DNA of 36,495 nucleotides, from the UHGV virus genome UHGV-0114752; one strand, given 5' to 3'. Below are positions 3,544-31,540 of this stretch, one piece after another; position 1 is the stretch's first letter, and the number at the start of each line of letters is the position of its first letter. The notes beneath the pieces are model-generated. The model did not search any database. It was not told where the DNA came from and saw only the letters and a list, made by a program, of their open reading frames with translations. This DNA is from a virus. A program made the translations under genes and the position numbers.

Positions 3544-4464
3544 CTACCATTCAATATGGTTCCGGGCTAAAGCGTAATACCTTTCACGCACATCTTTTGG
3601 CATGTGCGAAGTGTCGCCATATTCCGTAACCATGTCGAGCATCTGTTGCTTGATGGTAGCCGTGTTGCCTCCCATGATGGCTGGCGTCGGCATCGTCCCT
3701 TCCTGATACTTAGCCGCCTTTTCATACAACGCTTCCAAGATGTAAGTGTTGTTCAACGCCATTGAGAGAGCGGGGTCGTCGATGTTCACCCCGGCATTCA
3801 CCAAGCTTTGCTTCAAGATGATCGCGTTCCTTTCGTACTGCGGACCCCACTCCTGTTTGAAGTATTTTTCCGCTTCTTTGGATGCGGCCTCAAGGCGCCT
3901 GCCGAACTCTTCGTTGTTCTTCCTGTACAAGGCGTCCTGATATTTCAGAAGCTCCTGTGCCGTTTCCGCAGGAATGTTATGCTTGTGTGCGAACTCCGCA
4001 AATTCCTTGAAGCTTGCCTCATCGTAATCATCTTTGTACTCATCAGGGATTGAATACCCATCAGGAGAGTCCGGCACTCCCAAGTGCGCACGCCATGCCT
4101 TGATTTCCTCTTCGCTGGCGCCGTCTCCCGGCTTGGACACGCCTTCCGACTTCTTGCCGATGAGCTTGTTCGCATTCACGAACCCTTTTACCAATTCATT
4201 CAGGTTCTTATATTTGCCCAAAGAATCAGCTTCTTCAAACTTCGCGGTCCATCCTTCACTGAAAGAACCGTCTTCTCCGAGGATGTCGGCAATTCTGAAC
4301 CCTTCCTGTGAAGTGCCAGCCGGGAGCTGGTCGGTTCTTATCGTGCCGGGAATGGTAACGGGAGGCTGTCCCTGCCCTGCGTCTCCTGACGGAGCAGGCG
4401 TCGTGGTTGGAGCCGGGGTCGGGGCCGGGGCGCTTGGCTGGCTGTTCGGATTTGTATCAATCAT
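3544..4464 (-). CDS. Scaffolding protein candidate (306 aa)
   Basis: Pro/Ala/Thr-rich N-terminus, highly acidic charged-rich body (DEYKDDYDEASFKEFAEFA), located between portal and capsid; size matches T7 gp9 (307 aa). Confidence 0.5.
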   Translation of the reverse strand: MIDTNPNSQPSAPAPTPAPTTTPAPSGDAGQGQPPVTIPGTIRTDQLPAGTSQEGFRIADILGEDGSFSEGWTAKFEEADSLGKYKNLNELVKGFVNANKLIGKKSEGVSKPGDGASEEEIKAWRAHLGVPDSPDGYSIPDEYKDDYDEASFKEFAEFAHKHNIPAETAQELLKYQDALYRKNNEEFGRRLEAASKEAEKYFKQEWGPQYERNAIILKQSLVNAGVNIDDPALSMALNNTYILEALYEKAAKYQEGTMPTPAIMGGNTATIKQQMLDMVTEYGDTSHMPKDVRERYYALARNHIEW

Positions 4465-4766: not shown

Positions 4767-6389
4767 TCATCGCATGTCGCTAACAGCCTGACCAAGGTTC
4801 TTTTGAATCTGGGAAGCCCCCAAGGCTTGCGTCAGCGCATCGCTTTGGTTCTGGGCATTTTGTTGAGCTGTCCTGATCTGTTTGATCTCGGCTTCGGTCT
4901 TGAGGTTCTTCGTGTCCATGCCAAGCGCCTTGATGCCGTCCCTCAAAATGAAATCCGTATTCAGTGCCTGTAGCACAGAAGGGTCAATTTGGGCCATCGG
5001 AATGGCTATGGTCTGCATGAACTCCGCAAACAAGGTCGGCTTGTGGCGGTCAAGCAACATCTGGAACGGAGTCGTGAACTTGATCTTGAAATCATTCGTC
5101 AAGACTGGAACAAGATTCTCGTTGGAAAGAAGGTCATAGCACCGGAACACAACAGGCTCAAGGAATTCCTCCAGAAGGCGAGTGTAGGCAGGAGAAGCAA
5201 TCCGTGCCGAGTAGGACTCAATCATCTGGGCAACCGTTGCCTTCATGTATTGGGGGTCCTTCACCTGCAACAATGGCGCGAATAAGTCCATGTCGCAAGA
5301 CTTCTGAATGTTGCTCTCCAGACGCTGGACCTGCCATTGCATCTCATTGGCCTGCATCATGTTCTGGAACAAGGGCGTAGGCTTGTTCTGGACGTTCAAG
5401 GGATTGAATGTAGTAACCCCGCCAAACCCCCAGTCAATGTTCCCATCAAACCCTTCCGGCACCAGCATCGGCGGGAATATCTTTTGCATGGCAGATTCCG
5501 AAAGCGCCTTAAGATTGTTGGTAAGTTCAATCTGGTCGCCCAAGGCCCGCTTCCCTGCCCCTGTACCATAAGGCGAATTGGAAATGTCAAAGTAGTTGCT
5601 CACCACAACAGGGCACGTATGGAAGAATTGGGTAAGCAACACGTCCCCGGTCATGTCAAACACGCTACGAAGCACCCATGCCCTTCCATTTGCTTCTTCA
5701 ATCAGTTCCGGGTCTCCCGTCCTCTCTACCTTCTCCAGCAAGTGGAACACAAGCAGGTTGTCCGGGTTAACACTGCTGGCCCTGTACTTCTCCTTAACGA
5801 CCGTAGGCAACACGTTTTCAGGGAACGTCGCAACAATGTCCTGAACCCTCATCCATTCATCCCAGCAAAACGTGTGAAGCTCACCAAACTTGTCACGGTC
5901 AACCATGAAGTCTCCAACCGGAATCGATGCAAACTTGAGCCGACCTTTCTTCTTGTCGTACTCCGACCATAACGCCGCCTGACCATAAGCCGCCCGGTCA
6001 AAGTAAAACTGTTCCGACGCCGTGTGGAAGTTGCTATTGCGAATGAACCACGCAACCGAACGGCCAGTCGTATAGAAAACATCCGTGACGGTCGAATCAA
6101 TTTTCTCGTAGTTCTCAACCGTAGCCAGCGGCTCAAAGCTAAACCATTCGTAGCTCTTGGGCGTCATCAGTTCATGCTGGCCCGCCGCATTGATCCTCAA
6201 TGCTCTTTCCAGCGTCTGGTCAATGTAGCCAAGACTTGAAGGCGTAGATTCATAGACAGCTCCATTCACGTTGAACTTCTTTTCAGGATCAACATATTGC
6301 GCGATCCTCTGCCAATTGCTGACGTATCTCTGACGAAATGCATATAAAGCACCTCGCTTCTCTTTGGGGTCTTGAGTGTTGGCTAACAT
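4767..6389 (-). CDS. Portal protein candidate (540 aa)
   Basis: Large ORF immediately downstream of terminase large subunit in the packaging/head operon; size close to T7-type portals (536 aa); assigned by synteny. Confidence 0.6.
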   Translation of the reverse strand: MLANTQDPKEKRGALYAFRQRYVSNWQRIAQYVDPEKKFNVNGAVYESTPSSLGYIDQTLERALRINAAGQHELMTPKSYEWFSFEPLATVENYEKIDSTVTDVFYTTGRSVAWFIRNSNFHTASEQFYFDRAAYGQAALWSEYDKKKGRLKFASIPVGDFMVDRDKFGELHTFCWDEWMRVQDIVATFPENVLPTVVKEKYRASSVNPDNLLVFHLLEKVERTGDPELIEEANGRAWVLRSVFDMTGDVLLTQFFHTCPVVVSNYFDISNSPYGTGAGKRALGDQIELTNNLKALSESAMQKIFPPMLVPEGFDGNIDWGFGGVTTFNPLNVQNKPTPLFQNMMQANEMQWQVQRLESNIQKSCDMDLFAPLLQVKDPQYMKATVAQMIESYSARIASPAYTRLLEEFLEPVVFRCYDLLSNENLVPVLTNDFKIKFTTPFQMLLDRHKPTLFAEFMQTIAIPMAQIDPSVLQALNTDFILRDGIKALGMDTKNLKTEAEIKQIRTAQQNAQNQSDALTQALGASQIQKNLGQAVSDMR

Positions 6390-6390
6390 C

Positions 6391-6663
6391 TTATTGCCCT
6401 AAAAAGCTTTTCCCTCCAACACCACTCCCCGCTCCAAGCGCATTCTTCGAAGCAACGAATGTACCTCCAAAGGAACTTCTACGGCGGTTCTTCCGAACCT
6501 TCGATTCTGACCCATTCACGTCAACATCTACAGTCTCAACTGGCTTGGGCGGTTCCGGTGCGCTCGGTTGCTCTTGCTTCTTCCCAAGAAGACCTATGGC
6601 TCCGATCCCTTTGATAACTCCCGTAATCGCGTTGCCAATCGCTTTAAATGGATTTCCCCCCAT
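6391..6663 (-). CDS. Gly-rich basic small protein (90 aa)
   Basis: ORF track; Gly-rich N- and C-termini, basic KVRKNRRR patch; function unknown. Confidence 0.35.
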   Translation of the reverse strand: MGGNPFKAIGNAITGVIKGIGAIGLLGKKQEQPSAPEPPKPVETVDVDVNGSESKVRKNRRRSSFGGTFVASKNALGAGSGVGGKSFLGQ

Positions 6664-6940
6664 GTCTATTGTTCCTTTCTATCAGTTTTAGGTGCAGTCT
6701 AGCTTCTTTCCGTCCATACAGATACACATTCCCCCGCCGATAGCCAATAAAATATTTCATCTTAGGCATCTTTAACAAGGAAACAACGAACCTGCTATAG
6801 TCACCAACTACCAAATAAAAGAAAAAACCATTCGCCTCATTTCGACCAACTGAATTGCTCGGATTGCAACACTCCTTCACATTCTCCCACACCCCCTCCA
6901 TGTCTTCCCATCCCTCCGAAATATGAAAGAAATGCCCCAT
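6644..6940 (-). CDS. Hypothetical small protein (about 98 aa from internal Met; the 152-aa version would overlap the terminase 3' end by 104 nt)
   Basis: ORF 6644..7102 in the track. Met-55 (MGHFFHISEGW) is the first start that does not overlap the terminase gene. Confidence 0.25.
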   Translation of the reverse strand: MGHFFHISEGWEDMEGVWENVKECCNPSNSVGRNEANGFFFYLVVGDYSRFVVSLLKMPKMKYFIGYRRGNVYLYGRKEARLHLKLIERNNRHGGKSI

Positions 6941-6998
6941 AACAAGACCATCAGAATACCTCCGTCGCAAAAGATGCCTATGCTCTTCCCACGCCGTC

Positions 6999-8645
6999 TC
7001 AAAACTGATTCCGAAAGCTCGAAGGACTTCTCCCCCTCTCTCTTCTAGTGAAGATGTCATTGTAATCCCTCCTATCATTAAGTTCAGAAAAATAACTACC
7101 AAATCTTTTCGTGCAAACCGCAGGCTTCACACCCCGTGATTCTTTCAACAAGCCCATCATCCGAGCCTCCGCTATATATCTCAAAGAATCAGCCCAATGC
7201 GAAGAACTGTCATGCACAATCTCGTTCTTGTAGGCGCCATCCTCCCCAAGCGCTGGCTTCATCCGATAACTCAACCAGTACGGATAAGCCCTCTCTGTTC
7301 CCGAAATATCAAACCTAAACAACGGGAACATGCTCAACAAGTAATTGATGCTTATCCATTTATCTCTTATTCTAGGAAGACACGCAATCCCCGGCAACCC
7401 CGCCTGTTGCCACATGTTGGCCTGCGTCATCCCTGTGTCCGTCATGTATCCAGCATCATGCGGGAAAAAGTTCCGAATCAATGTAGGATATTTGCTCAAC
7501 AAGCGCGCTGTCCTTTGCGGTGGTCCCTCACTCCCGTACTGACCACAGTCACAATCAAAAATCCATATCAGCCCATCCTTCAACTGGAACAACGTAGAAA
7601 CCGTGTTCAACGGATTCCCCAAGTCCCACGTCGCATAGCAAGGCAAGGTCGGATCATATGGCGCATGCAAAAAATGACCAGCCGTCATCGCTCCTTCCAG
7701 AACCTCTTCCAAGATCGCTCCCTCCATCGGTACCTCAAACGCTTCTTCCAGCGTCGAAGGATATTCTTCGTTCATGGATAAACCATGCTGACGCTTCGTC
7801 TTCTGCCACCAAACCTTTTGCTCTGCCCTCAAATCAATACCATATTTCGCCTTCAACGTCGTAAAATAACTCTCCGTACTCTCACTCAACGGCTCATCAT
7901 CAAACGACTCATTGTTCGAATCCTCCCACCACGGCAAAAACACCACGTCGAAGTCCTTCTCCCCACGGTGTCTCTCTTCAATCTTCAACGCATTCATCAC
8001 GTTCTCATAGAACACACCCTTCTTCCCACCTCGTACCGTCGTCTCTATGAAAATAAAACCATCCTTCGCCGCTGGCAACGTCGCGTTCATGATCTCCCTA
8101 GCCCTCCCCGGCTCCGTCGCCGCTATCGTCCCAAGCTCACTGATGTGCGCAAAACCCAATCCACTCCCTCGAAAATATTTCCCACCAACAATCTCACTCA
8201 CTCGACGTCCCTTCATCCTCACCTTGATCTTCTTATTGTTGCACTCCAAATCAAACAACCAAGGCAACTTCCGATGCAAACTATCCAACGCTACCCTCAC
8301 AATCTCATTCAACTTCTCCTCCGCATCCGGTTGCGTCCTATCAACCAAGGCCAACAACCACCCCTCATTGAACGCCGCCATGTCTGCCATCATCACTCCT
8401 ATCGCCGTACTGCACCCCTGACGTCGCGACTTCGGTATCAAAAAACGCTTCTTCCCATGAATATACGCCTCCTCATGCAAACGCTTCTGAAACGGCTTCG
8501 GTTCATAACTTATCACTCGACCATCCGTCAACTTGATCTCATAAAGGTTGCTCAACCTCCATAACGGGTCCCTCAACCTCTCCAATAATAAACTCTTCTC
8601 TTCCTGACTTAACATACCTCGTCTATCTTTAACACCACTCGACAT
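6999..8645 (-). CDS. terL: Terminase large subunit (548 aa)
   Basis: N-terminal ATPase Walker-A-like KSRRQGCST. C-terminal RNase-H-like nuclease signatures ATWDLGNP, FFPHDAGY, HDSSSHWADSLRY. Size and position upstream of portal. Confidence 0.85.
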   Translation of the reverse strand: MSSGVKDRRGMLSQEEKSLLLERLRDPLWRLSNLYEIKLTDGRVISYEPKPFQKRLHEEAYIHGKKRFLIPKSRRQGCSTAIGVMMADMAAFNEGWLLALVDRTQPDAEEKLNEIVRVALDSLHRKLPWLFDLECNNKKIKVRMKGRRVSEIVGGKYFRGSGLGFAHISELGTIAATEPGRAREIMNATLPAAKDGFIFIETTVRGGKKGVFYENVMNALKIEERHRGEKDFDVVFLPWWEDSNNESFDDEPLSESTESYFTTLKAKYGIDLRAEQKVWWQKTKRQHGLSMNEEYPSTLEEAFEVPMEGAILEEVLEGAMTAGHFLHAPYDPTLPCYATWDLGNPLNTVSTLFQLKDGLIWIFDCDCGQYGSEGPPQRTARLLSKYPTLIRNFFPHDAGYMTDTGMTQANMWQQAGLPGIACLPRIRDKWISINYLLSMFPLFRFDISGTERAYPYWLSYRMKPALGEDGAYKNEIVHDSSSHWADSLRYIAEARMMGLLKESRGVKPAVCTKRFGSYFSELNDRRDYNDIFTRRERGRSPSSFRNQF

Positions 8646-9130
8646 AATTCGTACACCTCAAAGTCGTACTCCCTCTTCAACGGTTTCTTAAAATAACGAC
8701 GCGCTAAACTTAACTTGTCCGTCACTCCTACCTTGTTCAATTTCCGATTCCAACTCTCGTAAACCTTACCCTTGTAGTACCCTAAGTCAAAACTCAACCT
8801 ACTACGCAGTACATAGTAACTGTCCTCCTCCACTTCCTTCCTACCTTCATAACTCCTCTTCTCCCTTCCTCGCTCTGCCGCACTCGTCTTACCATTCCTC
8901 CTCACCCTCTCGTATTTCCTCCGTAAATAACCAATGTACCCTGATAACTTCCCTTCCCTCTCATAAATCCTCCACGCCCTCTGCACGTTCTCACTGCTGT
9001 CCTCCAGCCTCTTTAACCCATGCGCCACTCCATAAAACTCCTGCTCAAAACGACGCACTCCCTTCCCCTCAATCTCTATCGCTACCTCACTCCTTATCCC
9101 ACGATCCCTTGATTCCCAATGTCCACTCAT
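8609..9130 (-). CDS. Basic low-complexity protein (173 aa), Arg/Lys/Glu/Tyr-rich; possible small terminase subunit or DNA-binding protein
   Basis: ORF track; overlaps terL start by 37 nt; strongly purine-biased coding strand. Confidence 0.4.
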   Translation of the reverse strand: MSGHWESRDRGIRSEVAIEIEGKGVRRFEQEFYGVAHGLKRLEDSSENVQRAWRIYEREGKLSGYIGYLRRKYERVRRNGKTSAAERGREKRSYEGRKEVEEDSYYVLRSRLSFDLGYYKGKVYESWNRKLNKVGVTDKLSLARRYFKKPLKREYDFEVYELCRVVLKIDEVC

Positions 9131-9147
9131 AAAACTACTCCTTATCC

Positions 9148-9603
9148 CTAGTTCTTCAAAAGTCTGCTAAGCTCTTCCCCAAGCCCCTTGTCGTCCCCTT
9201 CCTTCTCCCCTAGCCATCCCTTCATCCTTATATACAAACTCAACGCCTGCAAACGTCCATTGCTGTTCACCCCTCGCCCTCTTATCATCTCACTCAAATA
9301 CGTCTCAACCTCCAACCGTGTCAACGTCTTAAAGCCTTCTCCTTCTCCTTCCTCTTCTCCCTCCTCTTCTCCTTCCTCCCCAAACAACTCCAACATCCGC
9401 TCGTAGCTCTCCATCAAACGCCACCCATACGACTTATCTCTCTCCCCGCACAACTTCTCCCCCAAATCAATAAAATCATCCGTCCTATACTCCCCTCCTT
9501 CTCTATACAGCCTCAACAAACTCCCAACCTCCAAGCTGTTCAGCCCTAGCTCCCTCACCAGCATCTTTATCTCTTCTCCCCCTATTTCTCGATTCTTACT
9601 CAT
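9148..9603 (-). CDS. Acidic protein with EEGEEEGEEEGEGEG tract (151 aa); candidate small terminase subunit by position
   Basis: First gene of the minus-strand packaging operon, just upstream of terL. Possible helix-turn-helix LVRELGLNSLEVGSLLRL near the N-terminus. No direct motif proof. Confidence 0.35.
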   Translation of the reverse strand: MSKNREIGGEEIKMLVRELGLNSLEVGSLLRLYREGGEYRTDDFIDLGEKLCGERDKSYGWRLMESYERMLELFGEEGEEEGEEEGEGEGFKTLTRLEVETYLSEMIRGRGVNSNGRLQALSLYIRMKGWLGEKEGDDKGLGEELSRLLKN

Positions 9604-10070
9604 GTCTTCTGCCTTTTATCACACCCCCCCCCAACATAGCAACCTTTTTCTAAACATCAACTCCATTCTCTCCTATATTCATTCATAGAACTGCTCTCAT
9701 TGCTGCTCATTCAATAACACTTCTCTTCTCTCTCTCCTCTCTCTCAAAACCATTTCTACCATCTTAGGCTGATCGAAACTGATAGCTGCTCTCTTCTCAT
9801 AGCCTATTCCCCTCCTCTATTACATATTGGTGTACCTTCTTCTCCCGCTTCAACCCCGCCGTCGTTTTTCCCCGGGGGTGGCGCCTCCATCCCTGCCCGT
9901 GTGCCCCCTAGTGGTGGGTGCTGTGGAGCGCTCCCTTGTGAGGGCCATCGCCGTCCCTGCTGGAGTTGCTATAGTCCGAGAGCATCCCCTCCCCAACTGA
10001 TCGATGCCTCCACGGAATGGGAGAGTCTGATGAAAAGAATAGCTTGATCAAAAAAACATAGAAAAAAGTA

Positions 10071-11255: not shown

Positions 11256-11858
11256 ATGAATAAAAAAATCAAGGAATACCAATGGAAGGCTCTACTCATC
11301 TTGGGGCCGCACACCAGTGAAACGCGCGAACTCGAAGGCACGCTTCAATCCGTCTCCATCGACAGCGCAATCACCACCATCAAATCCAGAATTGCAAAAG
11401 GTGGAGACTTTCACGCGATTGCCTTCCTGTATGACACAAAAACTGGTCAGCTCATCACAACCTCCACCCTCAAGAAAGAAAAGTGCGCGTCCTATCGCCA
11501 AAAGGAAGAACGAAGAAAGCCTCGCGTCAGGAAGGCCACCTCAACCTTCGCACCTCGCATCACCTATGCCTGCAAAGTCGATGGCGTCGTCCGTCAATCA
11601 ATCTCCATCAAAGAGTTCACCATCGATCCCAACGGCAAGCTAAGGGCATCCTCCGGCGTCCTAGAGCTTCCCAAAGAGATCACGCCAAGACACAAGTTCA
11701 TGACCCCAGAAAAGGCCCACAACGCCTCTAATCTCATCATTCAGCATCTCATCAGCAAAGGCATGTTCCCAAGCCGGGAAACACTCGAAAAATGCACCCA
11801 AAAGTGGATCAATCACAACCAACTCATCGACGCTCTAAATAGTCAACCTCAATCATAA
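11256..11858 (+). CDS. Hypothetical early protein (200 aa)
   Basis: ORF track; followed by terminator hairpin. Confidence 0.5.
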   Translation: MNKKIKEYQWKALLILGPHTSETRELEGTLQSVSIDSAITTIKSRIAKGGDFHAIAFLYDTKTGQLITTSTLKKEKCASYRQKEERRKPRVRKATSTFAPRITYACKVDGVVRQSISIKEFTIDPNGKLRASSGVLELPKEITPRHKFMTPEKAHNASNLIIQHLISKGMFPSRETLEKCTQKWINHNQLIDALNSQPQS

Positions 11859-11885
11859 ACCTAGCTCCAAAAACCAAAGAGTCCA

Positions 11886-11932
11886 AGAATGCGGCAAGTG
11901 GCGAAAATCCACATGTCGCATTCTTCTTGTTT
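11886..11932 (+). terminator. Intrinsic terminator (plus strand) ending the first early operon
   Basis: Stem AGAATGCG / CGCATTCT enclosing an inner stem GTGG / CCAC, followed by TCTTGTTT. Confidence 0.45.
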
Positions 11933-12366
11933 AAACACAACGCATTACAACACATTTCCTAACAGCCTCCAAAACTCTAACAAATTATCCACCAACTAAC
12001 TCACACACAACAACTTCCCCATTTTCCCATTGACGCTTTCGCCCAAGTGTCATAAATTGTTATCAAACTTTAACTAATTCATAACACACTACAAAACCAA
12101 CGTGTTGACAATTTCAAAACAAAAAAATATCGACCGATGCCGCAAAATAGTGTTGATTCCAAGGTACCCTATGGAGCCGCTGTGCGGTGATATGACACGG
12201 TCGGTGAGTCCCCCGGACGGCCACCGTCCGCACTTGTTAAACGAATTGAGAGTATTCTATGACGATATGGTGATGTGAGTCAATGAAAAAAAATGATGTT
12301 TATGTCAGAAGTTTGTCCTGCTTGAGAGACGAGGAATGAATTAAGAGAGCTGAAGAGGGTTTGAGA

Positions 12367-12396
12367 GGCTTGAGGGATGGCTTGAGGGATGGCTGG
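12367..12396. repeat. Tandem 12-mer GGCTTGAGGGAT, 2 full copies plus a partial third
   Basis: Read directly; lies in a GT-rich, C-poor non-coding stretch. Confidence 0.7.
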
Positions 12397-12605
12397 ATGC
12401 TAAATGGTTCGGCGTTGGTTTGGTTGTGGTTGTATGTGGTTTGGATTCATTCCTTTGACGGTGTTTTTGGATAGAGGTTTTACGGAGTTTGCTGGTAATG
12501 AGGTTGTGAGTGCTAGTAGATGGAGGATTGTGCCCTGATGTGAGGGTTTTGTGGTTCGTTTGTTGGGAGTGGTTGGTGGTTAGGGGTTTTGGGAGATTTG
12601 CCTGC

Positions 12606-12661
12606 GTTTGCGTGAAAAAAGACATAAAAGGTTCTTGTGTTTGCGTGAAAAAAGACATAAA
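12606..12661. repeat. Two direct 23-bp repeats GTTTGCGTGAAAAAAGACATAAA with 33-bp period (iteron- or operator-like)
   Basis: Copies at 12606-12628 and 12639-12661 are identical. The second copy abuts a perfect TATAAT at 12662-12667. Confidence 0.7.
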
Positions 12662-12667
12662 TATAAT
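12639..12667 (+). promoter_or_regulatory. Candidate promoter: repeat copy 2 followed by consensus -10 TATAAT
   Basis: TATAAT at 12662-12667. Upstream TTTGCG / TTGCGT at -35-like distance (15-17 nt). Would drive the 52-aa ORF 12699-12857 and the 13049 operon. Confidence 0.35.
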
Positions 12668-13048
12668 TTCAACAACTTGAAACTTGAGAAAAAAACAGAT
12701 GAATAGAAACTGGTCTAAGATTGTAGAAGCATGTGGAGATCGTCACATGGATGGGAATGAGCTTGAGAGGGCTTTCTGCGGGGTTGCTGATCGTTTGATG
12801 AGTCTTTCTACGTTTTTGAGGTGGAACGAGGTTCTGATGGGCTTGGAATGGTTTTGATCGACATTTTGGACAACGGCTATGAACGCGAGAGAAAGAGAAG
12901 AGAATTTTCGTTTGAGGAGAGATGAGCTACTACGAGAGTTCATTGATCAGGGGACGAGAGATTGGAAGGGAGTGGAAGACCCTCTTAAGCATCCTAGAAG
13001 AGCTTGAAAAAAATGATAAGGAAAACACAACCAAAACAAGAGAAGAAT

Positions 13049-13678
13049 ATGGAAACAGAAAAGAAGATAGATGAAGAGGCGGTCGATATTGGCGACTCTC
13101 TCAAGTCTTTTATAAAAAAGGCAGAAAGAGAATTGGAATATTGTAGCCTTTCCGAGAAAGATATTTTAGTGAAGTTGCGCGTGGTGGACCTACTGTATGT
13201 TGCGACGAAAGACGCCTATGAACTTAAAGGTCTTCCTGCTAAAGAAGCGTTGCGCCACATTTTGGGGAGGATTTTTTCACAAGAGGCGAGATTACCCGAG
13301 ATTTCGTCTGATTCCTCTCTTTGCAAAAGCATCTACCTCGAGCTTGTGGGTGACGTCTCCAATAAAGAGAAGATTTGTCTTTATTCAAGAGCCATCCATT
13401 ACGTGTGGTACGATTTTGAAAACTTAAAAAGGCAGGCAAGGGTATTGCCATTTGAATTTAAAATTGCTTTTGGCCGGGAAGACCGCGTTTTCGAAACGAA
13501 ATTCATAAACCCTAGTTTTGATTATCTAGGATATCTTAAGGAATCACTACTTGTGGCGTGCGAAAGGAACGCCCAAAGGATAGGTAAATTGAGAGCGTTG
13601 ATTGGCCACTTAAAAGAAATTAAGAACGTCTTTCCGCAGGAAGAACTTAAAAGCTTATTTCCCCATGAAGAACAGTGA
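13049..13678 (+). CDS. Hypothetical protein (209 aa from ATG 13049; track lists TTG start at 13004), first gene of AT-rich island
   Basis: The ATG at 13049 is preceded by the conserved leader ACACAACCAAAACAAG found upstream of other plus-strand genes. No recognisable domain. Confidence 0.5.
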   Translation: METEKKIDEEAVDIGDSLKSFIKKAERELEYCSLSEKDILVKLRVVDLLYVATKDAYELKGLPAKEALRHILGRIFSQEARLPEISSDSSLCKSIYLELVGDVSNKEKICLYSRAIHYVWYDFENLKRQARVLPFEFKIAFGREDRVFETKFINPSFDYLGYLKESLLVACERNAQRIGKLRALIGHLKEIKNVFPQEELKSLFPHEEQ

Positions 13679-14036
13679 TTTGACAAAGATGCTTGCTAGC
13701 ATGCGTGAGTTAAGAGATTTGACGCACGGGGAGCTGGTGGATAAGCCCATTGACGGGCGGAGGTATGTGACGGTCACGGCGATAGACGTGTTGAACTGTT
13801 CGTTCTTGTTCAAGAAAGCGGTTGAAAAGATTTTCATGGACACGGCCAACGTTGACGTTGGGAGCGTCGAAAGGAAGGTTCTCGTAGATGAGGATTGCGG
13901 GGTGGGAGTCCCTGCCTTATCGCTCACATGCTCCGTTTTTACTGGGGAGTACGGTTTGTTCTACGCCCACTACCAAAGGATGCAAAAAGCAGTTTTTGAG
14001 AGCTTTGATGCGTCCAATATCCAAGAAATTTTATGA
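13665..14036 (+). CDS. Hypothetical protein (123 aa)
   Basis: ORF track; 14-nt overlap with upstream gene. Confidence 0.45.
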   Translation: MKNSDLTKMLASMRELRDLTHGELVDKPIDGRRYVTVTAIDVLNCSFLFKKAVEKIFMDTANVDVGSVERKVLVDEDCGVGVPALSLTCSVFTGEYGLFYAHYQRMQKAVFESFDASNIQEIL

Positions 14037-14084
14037 GGTGCTTAGCCTCTCATAAACATAAACAACCAAAACAAGAATAATAAA

Positions 14085-15530
14085 ATGGAAGTACAAGAAG
14101 AACTAGAGCTGGAACTGGATGACCAAATAAAAGCGCCTGTTGGGTGCGAATATGGGGCCTTAATAGGAACTTTTATCGAGGCATATTTAAGACCTAGAAT
14201 AGAAAAGTATTTGGAACTTAGAGAATCGGATAAAGAGGAGTTCCGCCGAATTGGTTGGGCATTAGGTCGTCACCAGCAAGAATGCACCAAAGCTGTTATC
14301 AAAGCGTGCTACCTGTGCGGGATTCCTCTTCCTCCCATGAAATTCGGTGAGGCGATGACGTTAACTAGACATTTAGCTTATCATGTCAGTAGCAACGACA
14401 TATGGAGTCCTGATAGAGAACTCTTGCCCTTTATGAAGGGTCCCCTAGAAGAGAATAGCTTGGAGCTTAACACACTAAAAGACCTCATTCTTTTGGATGA
14501 TGATTATCTCGGCTATAGAGAGTACATTGACAAACCATTGGAATATACAGGAAAGGGTCTCGTCGAAGTTGTTACAGACGTTTACCATATTTATAAATAT
14601 TATTATGAATTGTCGAAAGAGATTAACGAAAAGCCTAAAATAGATAAATTCAAAAAGTTTATAAAAATAAAAAAGAGTAAAGACGGAAATAACCACTCAA
14701 TTATATATACCAAATTGGATAGTAAAAAATACTATTCTAAAAGAAGAGCTTATCATGGCGAAATGCAGATAAACAGATATTTAGAAGAGAAAGAAGAGAC
14801 CTTAGATAATTTACGTCTTGGCTTAGAAATAGAATGCGTTGCGAGAGATATTCCCGCTTTTGAGGTAATGGAAAAAGACCTTTCGAATTTCTTCTATACC
14901 CAAAGAGACGGCTCTCTTCCGATACACGGGAGGGAAATCACTACATTTCCTATTAACTATAAGGACTTGATCGCGGACGGGGGAGTTCTGGACGCGCTTT
15001 TCACTTATCATACGGCCCACAGGGCAACATCTTTTGATATTAATGAATGTGGATTGCATTTTCACGTGTCACGGGAAGTGATCGAGAAAAAATGTGATTT
15101 AAATTTAGTGTATGAAAGGATCATCCGTTTTTATTACGGAGATGGGGAGAGTAAAGGCCTTAACAATAGGATATTCTTGCGAGGGAACGGCCATTATTGC
15201 AGGAAGACGACACTTATTAATTTAATCGAACGCATTGGATTTGAAAATGTAAAAAACAAGGCCATAGCGAAAGTTATAGCTCAAGAGCGCCCGCAACAAC
15301 ATTACTTTGAAATCTGTTTCCATGAGAAGGGAATCACATTAGAGTTTAGGCGAGGGAAAGGATGCATATCGCCCGAGCATGTTAAATGCATGTGCGAGTA
15401 CGTGGCTCTTCTCGTCAGGTATAGTTGCAGTCGGCTTTCAACCGGGAAGAATGATTTGGACTCCTTCAAAAAGTTCTGCGCTAAACGAGCCAAGACAAGA
15501 AGGCTTAGGAACATTCTTGAGCTTGATTAA
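14085..15530 (+). CDS. Glutamine-synthetase-like amidoligase (Amidoligase_2 family) with about 230-aa N-terminal extension (481 aa)
   Basis: C-terminal half carries GLEIECVARD (G-x-E-x-E metal site), QRDGSLPIHGREIT and CGLHFHVSR (G-x-H-x-H) motifs characteristic of GS-like amidoligases. Preceded by leader AACAACCAAAACAAG. Confidence 0.65.
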   Translation: MEVQEELELELDDQIKAPVGCEYGALIGTFIEAYLRPRIEKYLELRESDKEEFRRIGWALGRHQQECTKAVIKACYLCGIPLPPMKFGEAMTLTRHLAYHVSSNDIWSPDRELLPFMKGPLEENSLELNTLKDLILLDDDYLGYREYIDKPLEYTGKGLVEVVTDVYHIYKYYYELSKEINEKPKIDKFKKFIKIKKSKDGNNHSIIYTKLDSKKYYSKRRAYHGEMQINRYLEEKEETLDNLRLGLEIECVARDIPAFEVMEKDLSNFFYTQRDGSLPIHGREITTFPINYKDLIADGGVLDALFTYHTAHRATSFDINECGLHFHVSREVIEKKCDLNLVYERIIRFYYGDGESKGLNNRIFLRGNGHYCRKTTLINLIERIGFENVKNKAIAKVIAQERPQQHYFEICFHEKGITLEFRRGKGCISPEHVKCMCEYVALLVRYSCSRLSTGKNDLDSFKKFCAKRAKTRRLRNILELD

Positions 15531-15547
15531 CTAACATACATAAGAAT

Positions 15548-15838
15548 ATGAAATTAACGGGAAACATTACAAAAGGTTACCAAGTGATGATAAGATTATC
15601 CTGTGGGTTCGAAAACTCGCATCAAAGAGCCGTCTCTAAATACAACATAGGAGAAATTAGGAAAATAGCTAAAGACCTAGCGAAGTCTTATTTCCTTGAG
15701 GGGGAATACACGATATCGGAAAGCAACTTTTTCAGATTAGTTTCAATTTCTATCTACGCTGACGGAGAAGAGTTGATGATGCTAGACGACATTGCGGAAG
15801 GATATTTAAAAAAACTTAGTGAACTTATAAAAGCATAA
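15548..15838 (+). CDS. Hypothetical protein (96 aa) between amidoligase and amidotransferase-like genes
   Basis: ORF track; co-oriented, 17-nt and 4-nt gaps to neighbours suggest one operon. Confidence 0.45.
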   Translation: MKLTGNITKGYQVMIRLSCGFENSHQRAVSKYNIGEIRKIAKDLAKSYFLEGEYTISESNFFRLVSISIYADGEELMMLDDIAEGYLKKLSELIKA

Positions 15839-15842
15839 ACAT

Positions 15843-16490
15843 ATGTGTATCATTGCTTACGGTAAAAAGGGAGACATGACGTTGACACAGCTTAGAACCT
15901 GCATGGAGAATAACCCTGATGGATTCTTCCTGTTAGGATATGAAGAGCATGAGAAAACACCTCACGTCTATTTAAGGACATTTGAAACCACAGAAGTGGA
16001 GGAAGAATTCAAAAGGCTAAAGCCGTCCGACAATTTCATCTTCCACGCCAGAATAAGAACACATGGTTCTATCACCATGAAGAACATTCATGGCTGGGAA
16101 GAGAAGGGATGGATATTCTGTCACAACGGAGTCTTGCATATTAGGGCAAGGGGCGATATGACGGATTCAGAAACCTTCTTTAAAGATATTTTTATCCCTG
16201 CCTTTGGAGATCAGAAAGCCGTTTCCTCTTTAGGGAAAATCAAAATGGTGAATGCTATCATAGGCACTAGCAAAATGGTCTTTTTCAAAGAGGGGAAGAT
16301 GCTATCATTCGGGAAATTCCTAAGGCCAGACAAAGAAAAAGACGTCTGGTTCTCCAACAACACTTACCTAGCTGTGAACTGGTATCCTGTTTTCCCTCCA
16401 CAGGTAGGCTTTAAAAGTAATAAAGTACGACCTGCCGTTAATAGTTCGTTCCATTATCTAGACGAGAATCTGGAATACGAACTGATTTAA
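15843..16490 (+). CDS. Class-II glutamine amidotransferase-like Ntn-hydrolase (215 aa)
   Basis: Begins MCIIAY (nucleophile Cys directly after initiator Met, hallmark of Ntn / GATase-II fold) and has FCHNGVL (HNG motif). Adjacent to the amidoligase as in known phage pairings. Confidence 0.6.
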   Translation: MCIIAYGKKGDMTLTQLRTCMENNPDGFFLLGYEEHEKTPHVYLRTFETTEVEEEFKRLKPSDNFIFHARIRTHGSITMKNIHGWEEKGWIFCHNGVLHIRARGDMTDSETFFKDIFIPAFGDQKAVSSLGKIKMVNAIIGTSKMVFFKEGKMLSFGKFLRPDKEKDVWFSNNTYLAVNWYPVFPPQVGFKSNKVRPAVNSSFHYLDENLEYELI

Positions 16491-16511
16491 GGAATAGAAT
16501 GAGTGTTTATC

Positions 16512-16546
16512 ATGGGCCGACATTAGAGCATGTCGGCCCATTTTAT
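16512..16546 (+). terminator. Intrinsic terminator between convergent genes
   Basis: Perfect 12-bp inverted repeat ATGGGCCGACAT / ATGTCGGCCCAT with a 6-nt loop, followed by TTTTAT. Overlaps the last codons of the minus-strand 16543 ORF. Confidence 0.6.
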
Positions 16547-25441: not shown

Positions 25442-28400
25442 TTATCTGGATGACCAGCCATTGTCTTTGAGCTTTTTATTAACTCGTCTTAGTTCGCGCG
25501 AAAGTCTTCTATACTCTACACTCCGTTCCCCATAAGTACTTTTAGCTTCTCGTTTCTCCTTACGCAAGGATTTAGCTTCTTGCAGGAGTTTCTCTCTAGT
25601 GTCATAGAACGGGTTGGCATCTGTCCTCGTCGTCTTAGCCGCATTGTGAACTTGAATCGTGGCATTGGCGAAGGAGCTAATCATTTCAAACACACGGCCG
25701 ACAGTTTTCGCGTTGGCTATGTTGGACGTGAGAGCAACGACATCCCCAAGAGATCGGCTTACCCCGGCGCCAACTTCAATCCATTCATTCATGGTCACGG
25801 CGTCCATGTCTTCCGTACTCTTGAGTATGGTCTCGTAAGCGTCGGACAGACCGCGAATCGTTCGGCTAAAGTCCGTGAGCGTGTTCGGTCTAGCATAAAC
25901 ATGGCCGCCACCGAATGCATAATAGTCTAAGGCTTGGAACAGACCTGCGAAAACAGGTGTCGATACCAAAGGCCCAAGGGACATGTTATACAATATGTTT
26001 TCTGCCGTGAACTCGTCGTCGTTGTAGCTGGTGAAGAACGAAGCGGCCATGCCTGTGACGGCGCTTGCAAACCCTACGATAGACCACATCCGAATGAAGT
26101 TCCCCAGCTTGCGCATGTTGCTGATGTCTCCACGCTTGAATTGGCTAAAGAGAATCGCCGTCTTGTTAATCATGTCGGACATGAACAGCACTTGGAAAGC
26201 TTCATACGCAGACCCTCCTAAAGTCCCAATAGCGCGAGTAGATTGATTTTCTGGCTGGGCAGACTTCAAAATGTTGAGATTCAACTGGTCTATAATCTCG
26301 CTTTTGCTAAGGCCTCGGTTGTAAAGAATCTGTGAGGCAAGCATGTTCCCATGCTGGACACACCAAAGGTCAAGGTCAATCAAAGCCGAATTACCGCACT
26401 CCTGCCAATAAAGGACTTGTGCCTGTTTGATGCGAGGCGCATTTTGAGAAGCCTTAATAATCGCTCGGTCCTGCCATGTTAATGGTTTACGAGCAGTTAT
26501 GCCTTCCAATTTGGCCATCTCTTGAAGGGAAATAGGATGAGGATTGACGGCTAGAGAAACCAGCCCCTTTATGATTTCCATACTGCTGAAATCAGTGCCA
26601 ACAAGCGGGTTGAAGAAAGCCGCACCACTACGACAAACCGAAGCAATAGAATTGAAAATCTTCGTTCTCGCCAATGTGCCAGCCGCTTTCATGAACATCT
26701 CGCCAAACATCCCTTGCTGGGCACGAATGCGACCCTCATTCAGGAAGTTATACAATCCCTTTATGAATTGTTGATAGTTCTCCTTACCTATGACGTTCTG
26801 GATTTGTAAGGACGTCTTAGTGTTTAATAAAACTTTGTTATAGTACTCGCTAAGATAAAGGGAAGAAGACCAACCTTCTGCAATTTGTGCATACCTTTCA
26901 AACTCCTGAACAGGGTTTACAAACATGCTTATCTCGGCAGAAGCGGGAGTGCTTCTCTTCTTCATGAAGGAAGGCTTACCTGAATAAGAGATTTGTCCCG
27001 GCTCATAACCCGTTGTGTCATAGAAGCCGTCCCCCATTTGCCCTTCATGTGCGGTAGTGCGCGGGGTATAAAAGTCCTCCATGCTGGAGACTTGACCGAA
27101 GAACGATTCTTCTATGCTTGCTATCTTTAAACCTAATTCCCTGTAAGCGCTTTGTATCGACCGCGCCAAGAACAAGCCGTCAGGACCTAATGCTTCAATC
27201 AGCTCCTGCTGGTCTTGGGCAAGCCTTGCATCATACATCTCTTGCGCCTCAAGAACCCTATTTTCATACGCCTCTTGCGTTATCTCTTCGTTAGATAATT
27301 GTTCATCCAGTTGAGAGATACGGGCATCAAGAAGAGCCTTATCTCCAAAGTCCATCTGGTAGTTGTTCCGAAGCACTGCAACGCCATCCGATTCTTGAAG
27401 CGTCTGATAAATCTTGATTAGTTGCGTTTTGGTAAACTCACCATTACGGAACTGAATCAAATCATTATTCATCTTGTAGAAGTGCCGTGCTACTTGCGTT
27501 GCAGACTTGGCATCTTTGACTCCCCCACGGGTCGCCGCTCCCTTAAGCCATGACGAAATCATCGCATGTCTCTTAACGCGAGCATTGTCACGCTCAAGAG
27601 TAGCCCTGACAACTTCGTTAAGAAGGAAAGTACCGTTTGACTTAAAGCCCGGCAAGGTCTCTAAAACTTCGGCAAGTTGGACTGTTGAAAGAAGTCCAGT
27701 GAAGAAGCTTTTGATGGTGCTATATTCGCCGCTTTCACGAAGAAGAGCTTTCAAATCGTCCACCTTCTTCTCCGTTCCTACTGCACGGGCCACCTCGTCG
27801 CGGAAGACATTCAACTTCTTCTCGCGGCGTTCAAGCTCTTCCCTCCATCTAAGTCTCCCCTCATCCTGTAAACGCTTTAAGGCTTCAAAAGCTTTTTCCT
27901 GATCGGCCGCATTGCGCACATACTGATATCTGCCGTTGTCCATCTTTTCCCGGTACAAGGCAGAACCGAATGTTTCTAAAAGTGATTGCGCCTGCTGGAT
28001 GTTTCTTACCTGTGCGCTGGAAGGGTCTTGTGAACTTTCAATAATGCGTTCCAGCATATTCTGTAGAAGGTCCTGTTGAGCTTCTACCTCGGCAAGAGGC
28101 ATCCTCATGATCTCTTCTATAGCTAAAGTCTGGTACCTCCCTGCCGCATCTAGAGTAGAAGAGACTCCCTTCGTGTCTCTATAGGCCCGCTTAGCTAGAC
28201 GTTCCAGACCGCGAACATTATTAATTTGCTTCTTAGCCTCTTTCCTAAGCGACGCCTCTTCCTCACGGGTTGACTGGCGAAGAGATTTATCAACAAGCTT
28301 TCTGACCTCTCTCTCTATCTTAGCGAATTCAGCTTCCTGAATTTGATAGTTTATAGCCTTCACTCCACGGTCCAAAGCAGTTTGAAGCGACGCCTCAAAC

Positions 28401-31400: not shown

Positions 31401-31540
31401 AAGCCAACATTTGCGGCACGTCTTTGCTCTACTGGAATAGATTCTGGGGTTAGGTCTAAAGGACGAAGCTCTTCTTCACCTAAAGGTTGCGTGGCATCCA
31501 GCTCATCATCAGGTGAGGTAAATTGTAGTCTCTGTGCCAT
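25442..31540 (-). CDS. Giant virion protein (2032 aa): internal ejection / core protein (T7 gp16-like by position) or tape-measure-like
   Basis: Single uninterrupted ORF. Long coiled-coil-rich middle. Gly/Ala-rich region (GGVALKGVRAIRGG...AAGAATETV). C-terminal hydrophobic helices (SIVGFASAVTGMAASFF; LGPLVSTPVFAGLFQAL). Confidence 0.6.
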   Translation of the reverse strand: MAQRLQFTSPDDELDATQPLGEEELRPLDLTPESIPVEQRRAANVGFAELSEQQQADYIGLRANALRRQTLAELDSYKKLQRDIESSDVLDDSMISEALKLHDSLVKRGIDPAFEVRRDKIERQNAIIGALTQNIQPEKGLYGNIDAQEVSDNELGGILNGDQIFAWNNSDNAQKERILIQAIKDVKFPNVEISDEMASSLLMQEYGVDSINGVINKYSQDLKRSRQVKESYYRAEGNFLPSFLENGGDIEKAIDALGEDSIYARSIFNNAPYLRAQYKAAYEATSWIKDEYIKEGSLDWDKMADKLLALGENGGSFKLAIDMLPNFIPDDKRTWIIQAIDDTYEDIGNFVKLSTSEGLEEEKALRLALAIQNEYRATRDMPENRWGLGLRNLVDNVPKVAAVSLSSFIAGAVTRNPVAVYSTATTVGSMVYGSSAGLEAFSNNSSKNGSVAYGLTVGSLEGALDALTMAAGGVALKGVRAIRGGEEAVRGIQAAAGRSLGGRIAMSGAAGAATETVQESISDPVYIGVENLYRSLGVDLTEQNTFKNWWENYNPLDPAFFIPTVVLGGSMGALGGFQANHLINKVGRSPQALIGLGIESDIAHQIATMPDGKERSNLIQQALFNTQQLNGSPENAASSSAAMLNFVAKNAEMFKNVELMPTFKDNGDGTFDIITTDPGSGNQSTMTLTDEMAGTYLSETLASNPSFVQALNLFAQRQLEPAIESQGIQLNPDELLTSIQNSEGINQSTARARALAYIQSNPELREQYNAGEITVEDVANNLEVVSAYRAGQIAVIEGRANPLDILEEIIHANATYDLETGAVTREFIEDSVRKYGEHTGRDFGDLSNDVALQEALATMGKALATNPELLGSLPGDVQSILEWQKDNIAEVGNIFKEGERIKQAIEDGVLDADFVKWSQSLANIADQTNARDIASLVNSAAETAILPSVQERTSALRVGPGIRTIEKAMSDIVGSTSEQAIAKLKAIRKSFMSLAEQAVEGKFSDKRQQNALLNSVLTLQNAFGQYGKTFIPTSLAQKLINPTSQLQFEASLQTALDRGVKAINYQIQEAEFAKIEREVRKLVDKSLRQSTREEEASLRKEAKKQINNVRGLERLAKRAYRDTKGVSSTLDAAGRYQTLAIEEIMRMPLAEVEAQQDLLQNMLERIIESSQDPSSAQVRNIQQAQSLLETFGSALYREKMDNGRYQYVRNAADQEKAFEALKRLQDEGRLRWREELERREKKLNVFRDEVARAVGTEKKVDDLKALLRESGEYSTIKSFFTGLLSTVQLAEVLETLPGFKSNGTFLLNEVVRATLERDNARVKRHAMISSWLKGAATRGGVKDAKSATQVARHFYKMNNDLIQFRNGEFTKTQLIKIYQTLQESDGVAVLRNNYQMDFGDKALLDARISQLDEQLSNEEITQEAYENRVLEAQEMYDARLAQDQQELIEALGPDGLFLARSIQSAYRELGLKIASIEESFFGQVSSMEDFYTPRTTAHEGQMGDGFYDTTGYEPGQISYSGKPSFMKKRSTPASAEISMFVNPVQEFERYAQIAEGWSSSLYLSEYYNKVLLNTKTSLQIQNVIGKENYQQFIKGLYNFLNEGRIRAQQGMFGEMFMKAAGTLARTKIFNSIASVCRSGAAFFNPLVGTDFSSMEIIKGLVSLAVNPHPISLQEMAKLEGITARKPLTWQDRAIIKASQNAPRIKQAQVLYWQECGNSALIDLDLWCVQHGNMLASQILYNRGLSKSEIIDQLNLNILKSAQPENQSTRAIGTLGGSAYEAFQVLFMSDMINKTAILFSQFKRGDISNMRKLGNFIRMWSIVGFASAVTGMAASFFTSYNDDEFTAENILYNMSLGPLVSTPVFAGLFQALDYYAFGGGHVYARPNTLTDFSRTIRGLSDAYETILKSTEDMDAVTMNEWIEVGAGVSRSLGDVVALTSNIANAKTVGRVFEMISSFANATIQVHNAAKTTRTDANPFYDTREKLLQEAKSLRKEKREAKSTYGERSVEYRRLSRELRRVNKKLKDNGWSSR

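Follow-up and report, generated by a model that had tools for sequence, protein, structure and literature searches.

A predicted glutamine-synthetase-fold ligase and its class-II amidotransferase partner form the core of an accessory three-gene cassette in the gut-type phage genome UHGV-0114752

The pairing of an Amidoligase_2 ligase with a class-II glutamine amidotransferase (GATase) was reportedly predicted from genomics by Iyer et al. in 2009. The pair has been annotated in LUZ24-like phages (PMC3890496, PMC3517423), in RIO-1-like and phiEco32-type phages (PMC5498523), in OM43 phages and more than 30 related viral genomes (PMC10580990), and in archaeal viruses (PMC11706807). Here we analyze a cassette of the viral genome UHGV-0114752 which encodes a predicted ligase of the glutamine-synthetase (GS) fold, a small orphan protein and a predicted class-II GATase. 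The DNA analyzed, hereafter the window, is 36,495 nucleotides (nt) long and represents essentially the whole genome of an uncultured, podovirus-like phage of gut type (~36 kb), near-identical contigs measuring 36,021 to 37,374 bp. The original prediction made for this DNA had stated that phage comparative genomics noted such a pairing and stopped short of settling its function, which agrees with the published reports (PMC3890496, PMC5498523, PMC10580990, PMC8989533), and a literature search for functional or anti-defence studies of phage amidoligases found none. The pairing itself is already known, and what is new here is a very divergent member, the three-gene boundaries of the unit, the self-contained nature of the pair, around which no DNA-modification genes were detected, and the existence of natural knock-out strains.

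The same two-gene architecture, an amidoligase (PF12224) and a GATase, is present in the marine OM43 phages MEP401 and MEP402 and in HMO-2011-type viral genomes (PMC10580990). In MEP402, gp06 (548 amino acids [aa]) is an Amidoligase_2-type protein with an N-terminal extension, and its gene overlaps the one encoding the stand-alone class-II protein gp07 (291 aa) in the early/replication region. MEP401 and MEP402 gave the only tblastn matches of the window GATase to cultured phages, at 25.8 to 30.1% identity, whereas the ligases of MEP402 and the window are alike at motif level only (BLASTP E=0.016); among catalogued phages, no nucleotide match to the window and no tblastn match to its ligase were found. 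The MEP phages belong to the Zobellviridae and have another host, MEP402 has no small open reading frame (ORF) between the two genes, and the window proteins are far more divergent, falling below Pfam thresholds. The window version is a minimal two-enzyme form like that of MEP401/402, in which the N-terminal extension is specific to the clade and the small ORF is an orphan.

Larger cassettes are known from podoviruses (phiEco32, LUZ24/PaP3/tf/UFV-P2, RIO-1/PSA-HP1, 7-11, and CW02), where Amidoligase_2 and a class-II GATase lie among the early/DNA-metabolism genes, as in the window, and where the function has been proposed from comparative genomics only (PMC5498523, citing Hardies et al. 2013; PMC3890496; PMC3517423). 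These cassettes comprise five to seven genes, including an ATP-grasp protein, a COOH-NH2 ligase (PF14395) and a gamma-glutamyl cyclotransferase, and their GATase is a 486-aa GATase_6 protein. Our Pfam scan covered 35 ORFs of the window, including all non-nested ORFs of at least 110 aa, and this is the set to which the Pfam results on window genes refer below. It gave no match to ATP-grasp, PF14395 or gamma-glutamyl cyclotransferase, and tblastn with the window proteins reached none of the phiEco32/LUZ24/RIO-1-type phages. The window locus corresponds to the two-enzyme core of the phiEco32/LUZ24/RIO-1 cassette and is not a member of the full cassette.

The unit consists of three genes (14085-16490) and a hairpin, and it stands at the end of what its position indicates to be a rightward early operon. 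Its features, in window coordinates, are as follows (pLDDT, predicted local distance difference test).

14085-15530, plus strand: ligase, 481 aa, predicted divergent Amidoligase_2/GS-fold ATP-dependent carboxylate-amine ligase
14085-14639, plus strand: residues 1-185 of the ligase, a rapidly evolving N-terminal extension, helical for the most part, with no recognisable fold
14640-15530, plus strand: predicted catalytic domain of the ligase, residues ~186-481, pLDDT ~90-95, with conserved motif columns
15548-15838, plus strand: orphan ORF of 96 aa separating the two enzyme genes, whose position and size are conserved in this phage family only
15843-16490, plus strand: predicted 215-aa stand-alone class-II (N-terminal nucleophile Cys) glutamine amidotransferase/gamma-glutamyl amidohydrolase
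16512-16546, plus strand: hairpin terminator, stem 16512-16523/16530-16541, 6-nt loop, TTTAT tail

Direct library searches were insufficient to settle the fold of the ligase, which was instead identified by transitive profile homology together with structure prediction and fold search. Pfam gave no family at E<=1, PHROGs and PADLOC returned nothing for the five co-oriented proteins of the region, NCBIfam gave a weak YbdK carboxylate-amine-ligase match over residues 401-454, and a search of solved-structure sequences with the ligase profile gave no match at E<=10. When 5.8 billion proteins were searched with a word-indexed method, the only matches were a 98% twin and a 31%-identical relative, whose alignment with the ligase contains the conserved blocks GLEIE, DGSL, GxExTT, GLHxHVSR, and EFRRGKG. 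An exhaustive HMMER search with this alignment retrieved 1398 proteins at E<=1e-3, of which 144 reach E<=1e-10, all of them covering the C-terminal ~240 residues of the ligase, and 47 of 54 aligned relatives match Pfam Amidoligase_2 (PF12224) on their own (best E 5e-12). The closest relative clades reach 18.9 to 19.6 bits for PF12224, against a cut-off of 22 bits, and the missing match of the window protein at the gathering threshold is a limit of the curated model's sensitivity and not a biological criterion.

The G-x-E-x-E, RDGS, and G-x-H-x-H signatures on which the ligase had originally been recognized are indeed present (GLEIE, residues 246-250; RDGS, 274-277; GLHFH, 323-327), within a motif set comprising G246-x-E248-x-E250, D275-G-S277, G282-x-E284, G323-x-H325-x-H327, and E420-x-R422. 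Among 54 sequences, G323, H325, H327, R366, E420, and R422 are invariant, while G246, E248, E250, D275, S277, G282, and E284 are conserved in at least 90%, and all of these residues occur in the window ligase. Its structural model adopts the catalytic fold of GS and glutamate-cysteine ligase (GCL), with GCL enzymes among the best fold matches. Motifs and model together point to a very divergent Amidoligase_2 protein whose catalytic residues appear intact.

The ligase carries an N-terminal extension, as originally described, although it spans ~185 rather than 230 residues, since the confidently modelled domain begins near residue 185-190. Within the extension, pLDDT is below 50 at residues 1-25, 58-64, and 73-162, too low for a fold search. 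Identity to other family members is 9-15% over residues 1-95 and 16-31% over residues 96-190, compared with 29-53% in the catalytic domain. In other phages the ligase is anywhere between 289 and 550 aa long and its extensions are heterogeneous, which indicates that the extension is optional; the combination of variable N-termini with a constant catalytic domain suggests that these are interchangeable targeting modules. Several relatives (P0134, P0148, P0149, P0161, and P0165) have long N-termini in which CxxC zinc-ribbon motifs are densely clustered, Pfam DZR matches occur in one aligned relative, and P0043, P0068, and P0074 contain duplicated small beta-rich modules. For parts of the Amidoligase_2 family, such zinc-ribbon and beta-rich sequences point to macromolecular targets.

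The 215-aa protein begins with MCIIAY and has an HNG motif at residues 94-96, the two features from which a class-II, or N-terminal nucleophile (Ntn), enzyme had been proposed. Its match to GATase_4 (PF13230) stays just below threshold (21.6 bits versus a 23-bit cut-off, E=1.2e-4), and NCBIfam gives a weak hint of GlmS. We found 19 homologues, 13 of which match GATase_4 at E<=0.01 (best E 2.6e-7). All 19 share M1-C2-I3-I4 as well as N24, G27, H68, R70, T73, G75, H94-N95-G96, and D108-S109. The family profile matches solved class-II amidotransferases, namely 3mdn (2e-6) and the GlmS glutaminase domain 1xff (4e-5); in the alignment to the latter, HARIxTHG falls over GlmS HTRWATHG and HNG over HNG. 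We take R70, N95-G96, and D108 to be the equivalents of GlmS Arg73, Asn98-Gly99, and Asp123, the last of these presumably so from reading T-D-S-E against GlmS T-D-T-E. The AlphaFold 2 (AF2) model has a pLDDT of 84.7, and its top 40 Foldseek matches in the PDB consist only of GlmS, EgtC, PurF, GFAT, and AsnB, with E values down to 3e-6. The tail of the protein is 15-25% identical across the family, against 49-62% in the catalytic core. The 215-aa protein is thus predicted to be a class-II (Ntn) amidotransferase, and the nucleophile, the oxyanion hole and the residues expected to hold the alpha-amino and alpha-carboxylate groups of glutamine or of a gamma-glutamyl head group all appear to be present. 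For both enzymes, the check by profile HMMs (hidden Markov models) that the original prediction proposed came close to failing with the curated models, with no Amidoligase_2 match at E<=1 and a GATase_4 score under its cut-off, while the deeper transitive and family profiles and the structure and fold searches settle both fold assignments.

The two genes belong together well beyond this genome. We scanned 79 loci, five of them cut by a contig end, with HMMs of both families, and in every locus with enough flank (~75 loci) the ligase gene directly adjoins the GATase gene on the same strand. It is usually upstream and lies downstream in two loci, L032 and L079, and the genes often abut or overlap by 1-10 nt. 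Three unrelated phage contigs harbor a tandem ligase-GATase-ligase-GATase duplication (L010, 3987-8990; L027, 4858-8711; L070, 4980-8678). With clades defined by GATase identity of >60% and neighbours within 6 kb clustered, 34 of 35 clades contain both families and no other neighbour family occurs in more than 10, which singles out the two-enzyme pair as the conserved self-contained unit. Pfam identifies seven of the ten neighbour families that recur most, namely terminase, WhiB, PD-(D/E)XK, SSB, ERF, capsid, and portal. The ligase and the GATase are an obligate enzyme pair, and the family, with its sub-threshold proteins and its homologues in ~35 phage clades, reaches much further than Pfam-based annotation. 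A search of 185,579 species genomes produced just nine matches, all in gut-type contigs of metagenome-assembled genomes (MAGs), and the subfamily is therefore essentially viral. In the phage family to which the window belongs, with contigs of ~35-41 kb, the order is ligase, small ORF, GATase, and a convergent DnaC-like loader gene.

Five co-oriented plus-strand ORFs do lie at 13004-16490, with the coordinates originally given, but the proposal that they form one unit does not hold for the first two.

13004-13678, plus strand: ORF of 224 aa from a TTG start (~209 aa from the first ATG)
13665-14036, plus strand: ORF of 123 aa

The 123-aa gene is kept, at 37-38% identity, in relatives without the cassette and hence belongs to the conserved flank. 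For the 224-aa ORF, the cassette-less relatives have no homologue, and it contains a clean in-frame segment of 312 bp (104 codons) that is absent from strain L002, which is 98-100% identical there and has an extra 159 bp just upstream of this ORF (~12982). The region 13004-13678 and the site at ~12982 constitute a hotspot of modular indels adjoining the cassette. Two genes of 190 and 157 aa located upstream of the ligase in more distant relatives were considered as counterparts and are not homologous to the 224-aa or 123-aa ORFs.

The GC dip that had been claimed for the five-gene stretch is real for the three-gene unit, and it is more modest and narrower than claimed. The GC content of 14085-16490 is 0.396, compared with 0.462 for the window, which makes it ~2.5 standard deviations low among windows of the same size (standard deviation 0.027) and the 12th lowest of 682. 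The 123-aa gene, at 0.481, is not AT-rich, and the convergent DnaC-like neighbour, outside the range claimed, is also low (0.406). In 13 of 13 loci of this phage family, the cassette lies 4.6 to 9.6 points under its flanks; in other phage groups the pair has no consistent GC bias. The terminator ascribed to the region was confirmed as a perfect 12-bp inverted repeat with a folding energy of -23.5 kcal/mol (z = -4.23; 0 of 200 shuffles fold as well), which adjoins the stop codon of the convergent DnaC-like gene and which a simple terminator scan missed because its T-tract, TTTAT, is short.

Between the two enzyme genes, the 96-aa ORF is tightly packed, with 18 nt separating it from the stop of the ligase and 4 nt from the start of the GATase. 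It has no homologue beyond its own 100%-identity cluster, hhalign between the small ORFs of different sub-clades gives no significant alignment (E=0.11), their C-termini differ (IKA, KEG, KQK, INL, GKK), and the 96-aa ORF is absent from the pair in other phage groups, most phages with the pair having no small ORF. The earlier suggestion of a conserved substrate or carrier is contradicted by these findings. A Pup-like tag was likewise rejected, as no small protein with a conserved C-terminal Gln/Glu was found and the small ORFs cannot be aligned between sub-clades. In one sister clade (loci L016-L026) the small ORFs begin with tandem octapeptide repeats, (MKEQKKEP)n; near-identical contigs differ in the number of copies, so that the products measure 103-143 aa, and L001 has (MKEKTEPT)n repeats at 4230-4364.

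The accessory nature of the cassette, originally read from composition, finds stronger support in its presence and absence among close relatives and in its recurrent inactivation within the species, which also show it to be dispensable. Three relatives (L012-L014), found via a neighbouring 327-aa core gene, have neither enzyme. They are 82% identical to the window in the portal, 81% in the terminase, 63% in the PD-(D/E)XK nuclease, and 48% in the DnaC-like protein, and their 123-aa homologue and DnaC-like gene are ~177 bp apart, with only hairpin terminators between them. This empty site (L012, 8770-8947; L014, 3720-3896) holds two strong hairpins, one with a 12-bp G/C-rich stem, CCCCCCGGCAG...CTGCCGGGGGG, flanked by A- and T-runs and looking like a bidirectional terminator. 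Since distant family members, with core genes ~40-55% identical, carry the cassette at the same locus, it is more parsimonious to assume that the L012-L014 lineage lost it than that the others gained it, and a recent insertion was rejected on the same ground. Within the species, the following differences from the window affect the cassette.

14550-16492, no strand: 1,943-bp segment deleted in L091 (blastn aligns to 14549 and resumes at 16493)
14724-14729, plus strand: A6 tract in the ligase, codons 214-215; A7 in L090, which splits the ligase into ORFs of 218 and 255 aa
15128-15132, plus strand: T5 tract in the ligase, codon ~348; T4 in L089, with a truncated product of 379 aa
15251-15256, plus strand: A6 tract in the ligase, codon ~389; A5 in L089, variant P0188 being out of frame at the same place

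The L091 deletion removes the ligase from residue 156 to residue 481 together with the 96-aa ORF and the entire GATase gene and keeps the terminator, with flanks 99.7-99.9% identical to the window. The frameshifts of L089 and L090 are the only within-ORF indels across alignments of 9.1 and 6.0 kb, and L089 has no substitution in the ligase gene. The 9.1-kb region compared with L089 contains 48 homopolymers of at least 5 nt, only 10 of which fall in the ligase, and three of three events would fall there by chance with a probability of ~1%. The 90%-identity ligase cluster includes shortened forms; the intact allele is the commonest, the exact window sequence being found on six contigs beside further intact 481-aa alleles. 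Together, the frameshifts, the 1.9-kb deletion and the clean absence supply natural isogenic knock-outs as ready-made comparison strains for a function that the phage can dispense with.

Folds and catalytic residues predict an ATP-dependent, carboxylate-activating ligase acting with a Cys-nucleophile glutamine or gamma-glutamyl amidase. The reading we favor, with a probability of about 40%, is that the two proteins would constitute a two-subunit, glutamine-dependent amidotransferase whose target would be some ubiquitous component of the host. The ligase would activate a carboxylate as an acyl-phosphate in a reaction predicted to depend on ATP and Mg, while the GATase would cleave the amide of a bound glutamine or gamma-glutamyl group via a thioester at Cys2. 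What we infer beyond this is the passage of ammonia from one subunit to the other, the kind of substrate and the role in biology: the Ntn subunit would free ammonia from glutamine for use by the ligase, which would convert a carboxylate of some component of the host cell to a carboxamide or other amide, and the fast-evolving N-terminal extension of the ligase, perhaps with the 96-aa protein, would select the target or regulate it. The phage would benefit only under certain conditions, e.g., in taking over the host, in counter-defence or in excluding superinfecting phages, and this would account for the frequent loss of the cassette. This reading is favored because of the tight 1:1 linkage, the overlapping or abutting frames and the co-duplication of both genes, the last of which argues for a cognate 1:1 complex over a shared downstream hydrolase. 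A precedent for an amidotransferase domain working with a non-canonical synthetase in phages is Gat-QueC (PMC6884629).

Several points weigh against this assignment. A Rosetta-stone search of 16 long Amidoligase_2 relatives found no fusion of the two enzymes, in that none begins with Met-Cys or has a GATase domain. The known class-II amidotransferases that channel ammonia are fused to their synthase domains and do not stand alone, and we know of no GS-fold ligase that takes ammonia from an amidotransferase subunit. GlmS, PurF, and AsnB share with the 215-aa protein the N-terminal Cys nucleophile, the Arg/Asn-Gly/Asp glutamine-binding set and the fold; to our knowledge, however, their glutaminase domains are fused to a synthase domain that is never of the GS fold, whereas the window enzyme is a separate protein beside a GS-fold ligase. 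The best-characterised stand-alone enzyme among the fold matches is EgtC, a gamma-glutamyl amidohydrolase. The GATase gene and the small ORF are intact in the ligase-frameshifted strains, where strict co-dependence predicts otherwise, although these events may be recent. Being in homopolymers, the frameshifts could in principle also be sequencing errors, which the L091 deletion and the absence from L012-L014 cannot be.

If glutamine-dependent amidation by a GS-fold enzyme proved true, the pair would represent a new type of amidotransferase, and should a component of host defence turn out to be its target, it would also be an enzymatic counter-defence of a new class. We consider it unlikely that the full extension of this reading applies, in which the pair would be the first heteromeric glutamine-dependent amidotransferase with a GS-fold synthetase, would amidate a carboxylate of a host macromolecule or of an immune-signalling molecule early in infection, would use the hypervariable N-terminus and the small protein for target recognition under arms-race selection, and would form a widespread conditional counter-defence module present in at least 34 clades.

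The nearest competitor of the two-subunit amidotransferase is a gamma-glutamyl conjugate chemistry with opposed or sequential steps and an EgtA/EgtC-like or PafA/Dop-like logic, which we hold to be possible, if somewhat unlikely. In one version, the ligase would join glutamate, or its side chain, to the amine of a metabolite, peptide or protein, and the Ntn enzyme would mature, recycle or reverse the conjugate; in the other, the Ntn enzyme would first deamidate glutamine and the ligase would then use the new carboxylate. The GATase model fits EgtC, a stand-alone Ntn enzyme found among its best structural matches (E=7e-6, identity 14-17%), as well as it fits GlmS, and the conserved R70 and D108 would suit any substrate with a free gamma-glutamyl head group. 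The ergothioneine pathway couples the GCL-type, ATP-dependent ligase EgtA with the class-II amidohydrolase EgtC (PMC6154287), and the larger phage cassettes with the pair, termed gamma-glutamyl amidoligase systems, add a gamma-glutamyl cyclotransferase (PMC5498523). The likeness to EgtA/EgtC is one of logic and not of membership, as three further enzymes act between their two steps and none is encoded here, and neither a cyclotransferase nor an ATP-grasp partner was matched among the scanned ORFs. A two-gene module that is self-contained and has no intermediate enzyme would run a futile cycle if it formed a bond only to hydrolyse it again, and a shared hydrolase would be less expected to be co-duplicated with its ligase. 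As to the PafA/Dop variant, the deamidase Dop is a paralogue of the ligase and not an Ntn amidotransferase, and no Pup-like small protein with a conserved C-terminal Gln/Glu is encoded in the window.

Either chemistry could be directed at a precursor carboxylate of the peptidoglycan stem peptide so as to block superinfection, which is what published work has suggested for the larger cassettes of phiEco32, LUZ24, and RIO-1 (PMC5498523, PMC10580990). Glutamine-dependent amidation of a stem-peptide carboxylate is what MurT/GatD performs with different folds (PMC3267633), recurrent loss would fit a conditional benefit, and the occurrence of the pair in phages of very different hosts, as signalled by WhiB neighbours in high-GC contigs and by matches from marine and gut contigs, requires a ubiquitous substrate. 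We nevertheless find such a target doubtful for the window phage, which has two of the five to seven cassette enzymes and lacks matches to the ATP-grasp protein, the COOH-NH2 ligase and the gamma-glutamyl cyclotransferase among the scanned ORFs. No signal peptide or membrane segment is evident in the sequence or model of either protein, and our literature search found no experimental test of the proposal in any phage.

A decoration of phage DNA bases, e.g., amidation or glutamylation of a hypermodified thymidine or a 7-deazaguanine, appears very unlikely, so that the hypermodified bases mentioned in the original prediction are not supported. Amidoligase and amidotransferase Pfam matches do occur beside thymidine-hypermodification genes in viral contigs (PMC8989533), the amidotransferase domain of Gat-QueC works in 7-deazaguanine DNA modification (PMC6884629), and the cassette adjoins replication and recombination genes. 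The window ORFs, however, gave no Pfam match to a source of 5-hydroxymethyldeoxyuridine such as a thymidylate-synthase-like dUMP hydroxymethylase or TET/JBP, to the 5-HMUDK kinase or another nucleotide kinase, to aGPT-Pplase or DpdA, or to FolE, QueD, QueE, or QueC, and no such family is among the ten most recurrent neighbour families of the 35 clades. Near-identical strains lose the cassette while their aligned flanks have no detected change, and the lack of a Pfam match to a DNA polymerase among the same ORFs argues against the use of non-canonical deoxynucleoside triphosphates. For this subfamily, the self-contained two-enzyme unit argues against DNA hypermodification.

Least probable of all is a decaying, functionless passenger undergoing neutral erosion, for although frameshifts, an internal deletion, full absence in close relatives and a GC content persistently below that of the flanks would agree with it, no ligase allele is commoner than the intact one, every catalytic residue is preserved, the cassette is kept at the same locus across relatives with core genes ~40-55% identical, and the catalytic domains are far better conserved than the flanking variable regions, which implies purifying selection.

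Beyond the cassette, Pfam and PHROGs scans identified a T7-like portal, a Phage_capsid_2 capsid protein, an Amidase_3 endolysin and tail genes in the window, which also encodes the DnaC-like loader, a phrog_3657 protein, a DUF2800/PD-(D/E)XK nuclease, and RuvC. The closest portal of a cultured phage is that of Pelagibacter podophages, at 26% identity. The three cassette genes are preceded by A-rich leaders without a Shine-Dalgarno sequence (14060-14084, 15531-15547, and 15839-15842), which, together with the gut-MAG matches, suggests a Bacteroidota-type host. A sigma-70 promoter scan found 14 sites against 11.6 expected and is uninformative, as the consensus may not be that of the host. No RNA polymerase was detected anywhere in the window. 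An ORF of 2032 aa on the minus strand (25442-31540), taking up one-sixth of the genome, has zero Pfam matches, and its neighbours of 670 and 674 aa are likewise unannotated.

The region 6000-9700, and most strongly 8000-9700, exhibits an extreme strand asymmetry, with 7-11% G against 37-42% C on the plus strand and a GC skew as low as -0.65. Because the plus strand is so poor in G, the coding strands of the minus-strand genes located there (a 548-aa terminase-like ORF and E/G/R-rich ORFs of 173 and 151 aa) are almost free of C. At 9340-9385, a CT-rich, microsatellite-like tract, CTTCTCCTTCTCCTTCCTCTTCTCCC..., codes for a GEEEGEEEGEGEG run in the 151-aa ORF and differs by several small indels from strain L002 (99% identical). 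Upstream of the five rightward ORFs, ~1.1 kb without a convincing gene (11860-13000) follows a 200-aa ORF (11256-11858) and may serve in regulation, as an origin or as an end of the genome. Its composition switches from CA-rich (11860-12100) to GT-rich (12340-12680), and it contains a 26-nt direct repeat, TG(C/T)GTTTGCGTGAAAAAAGACATAAA, at 12603-12628 and 12636-12661.

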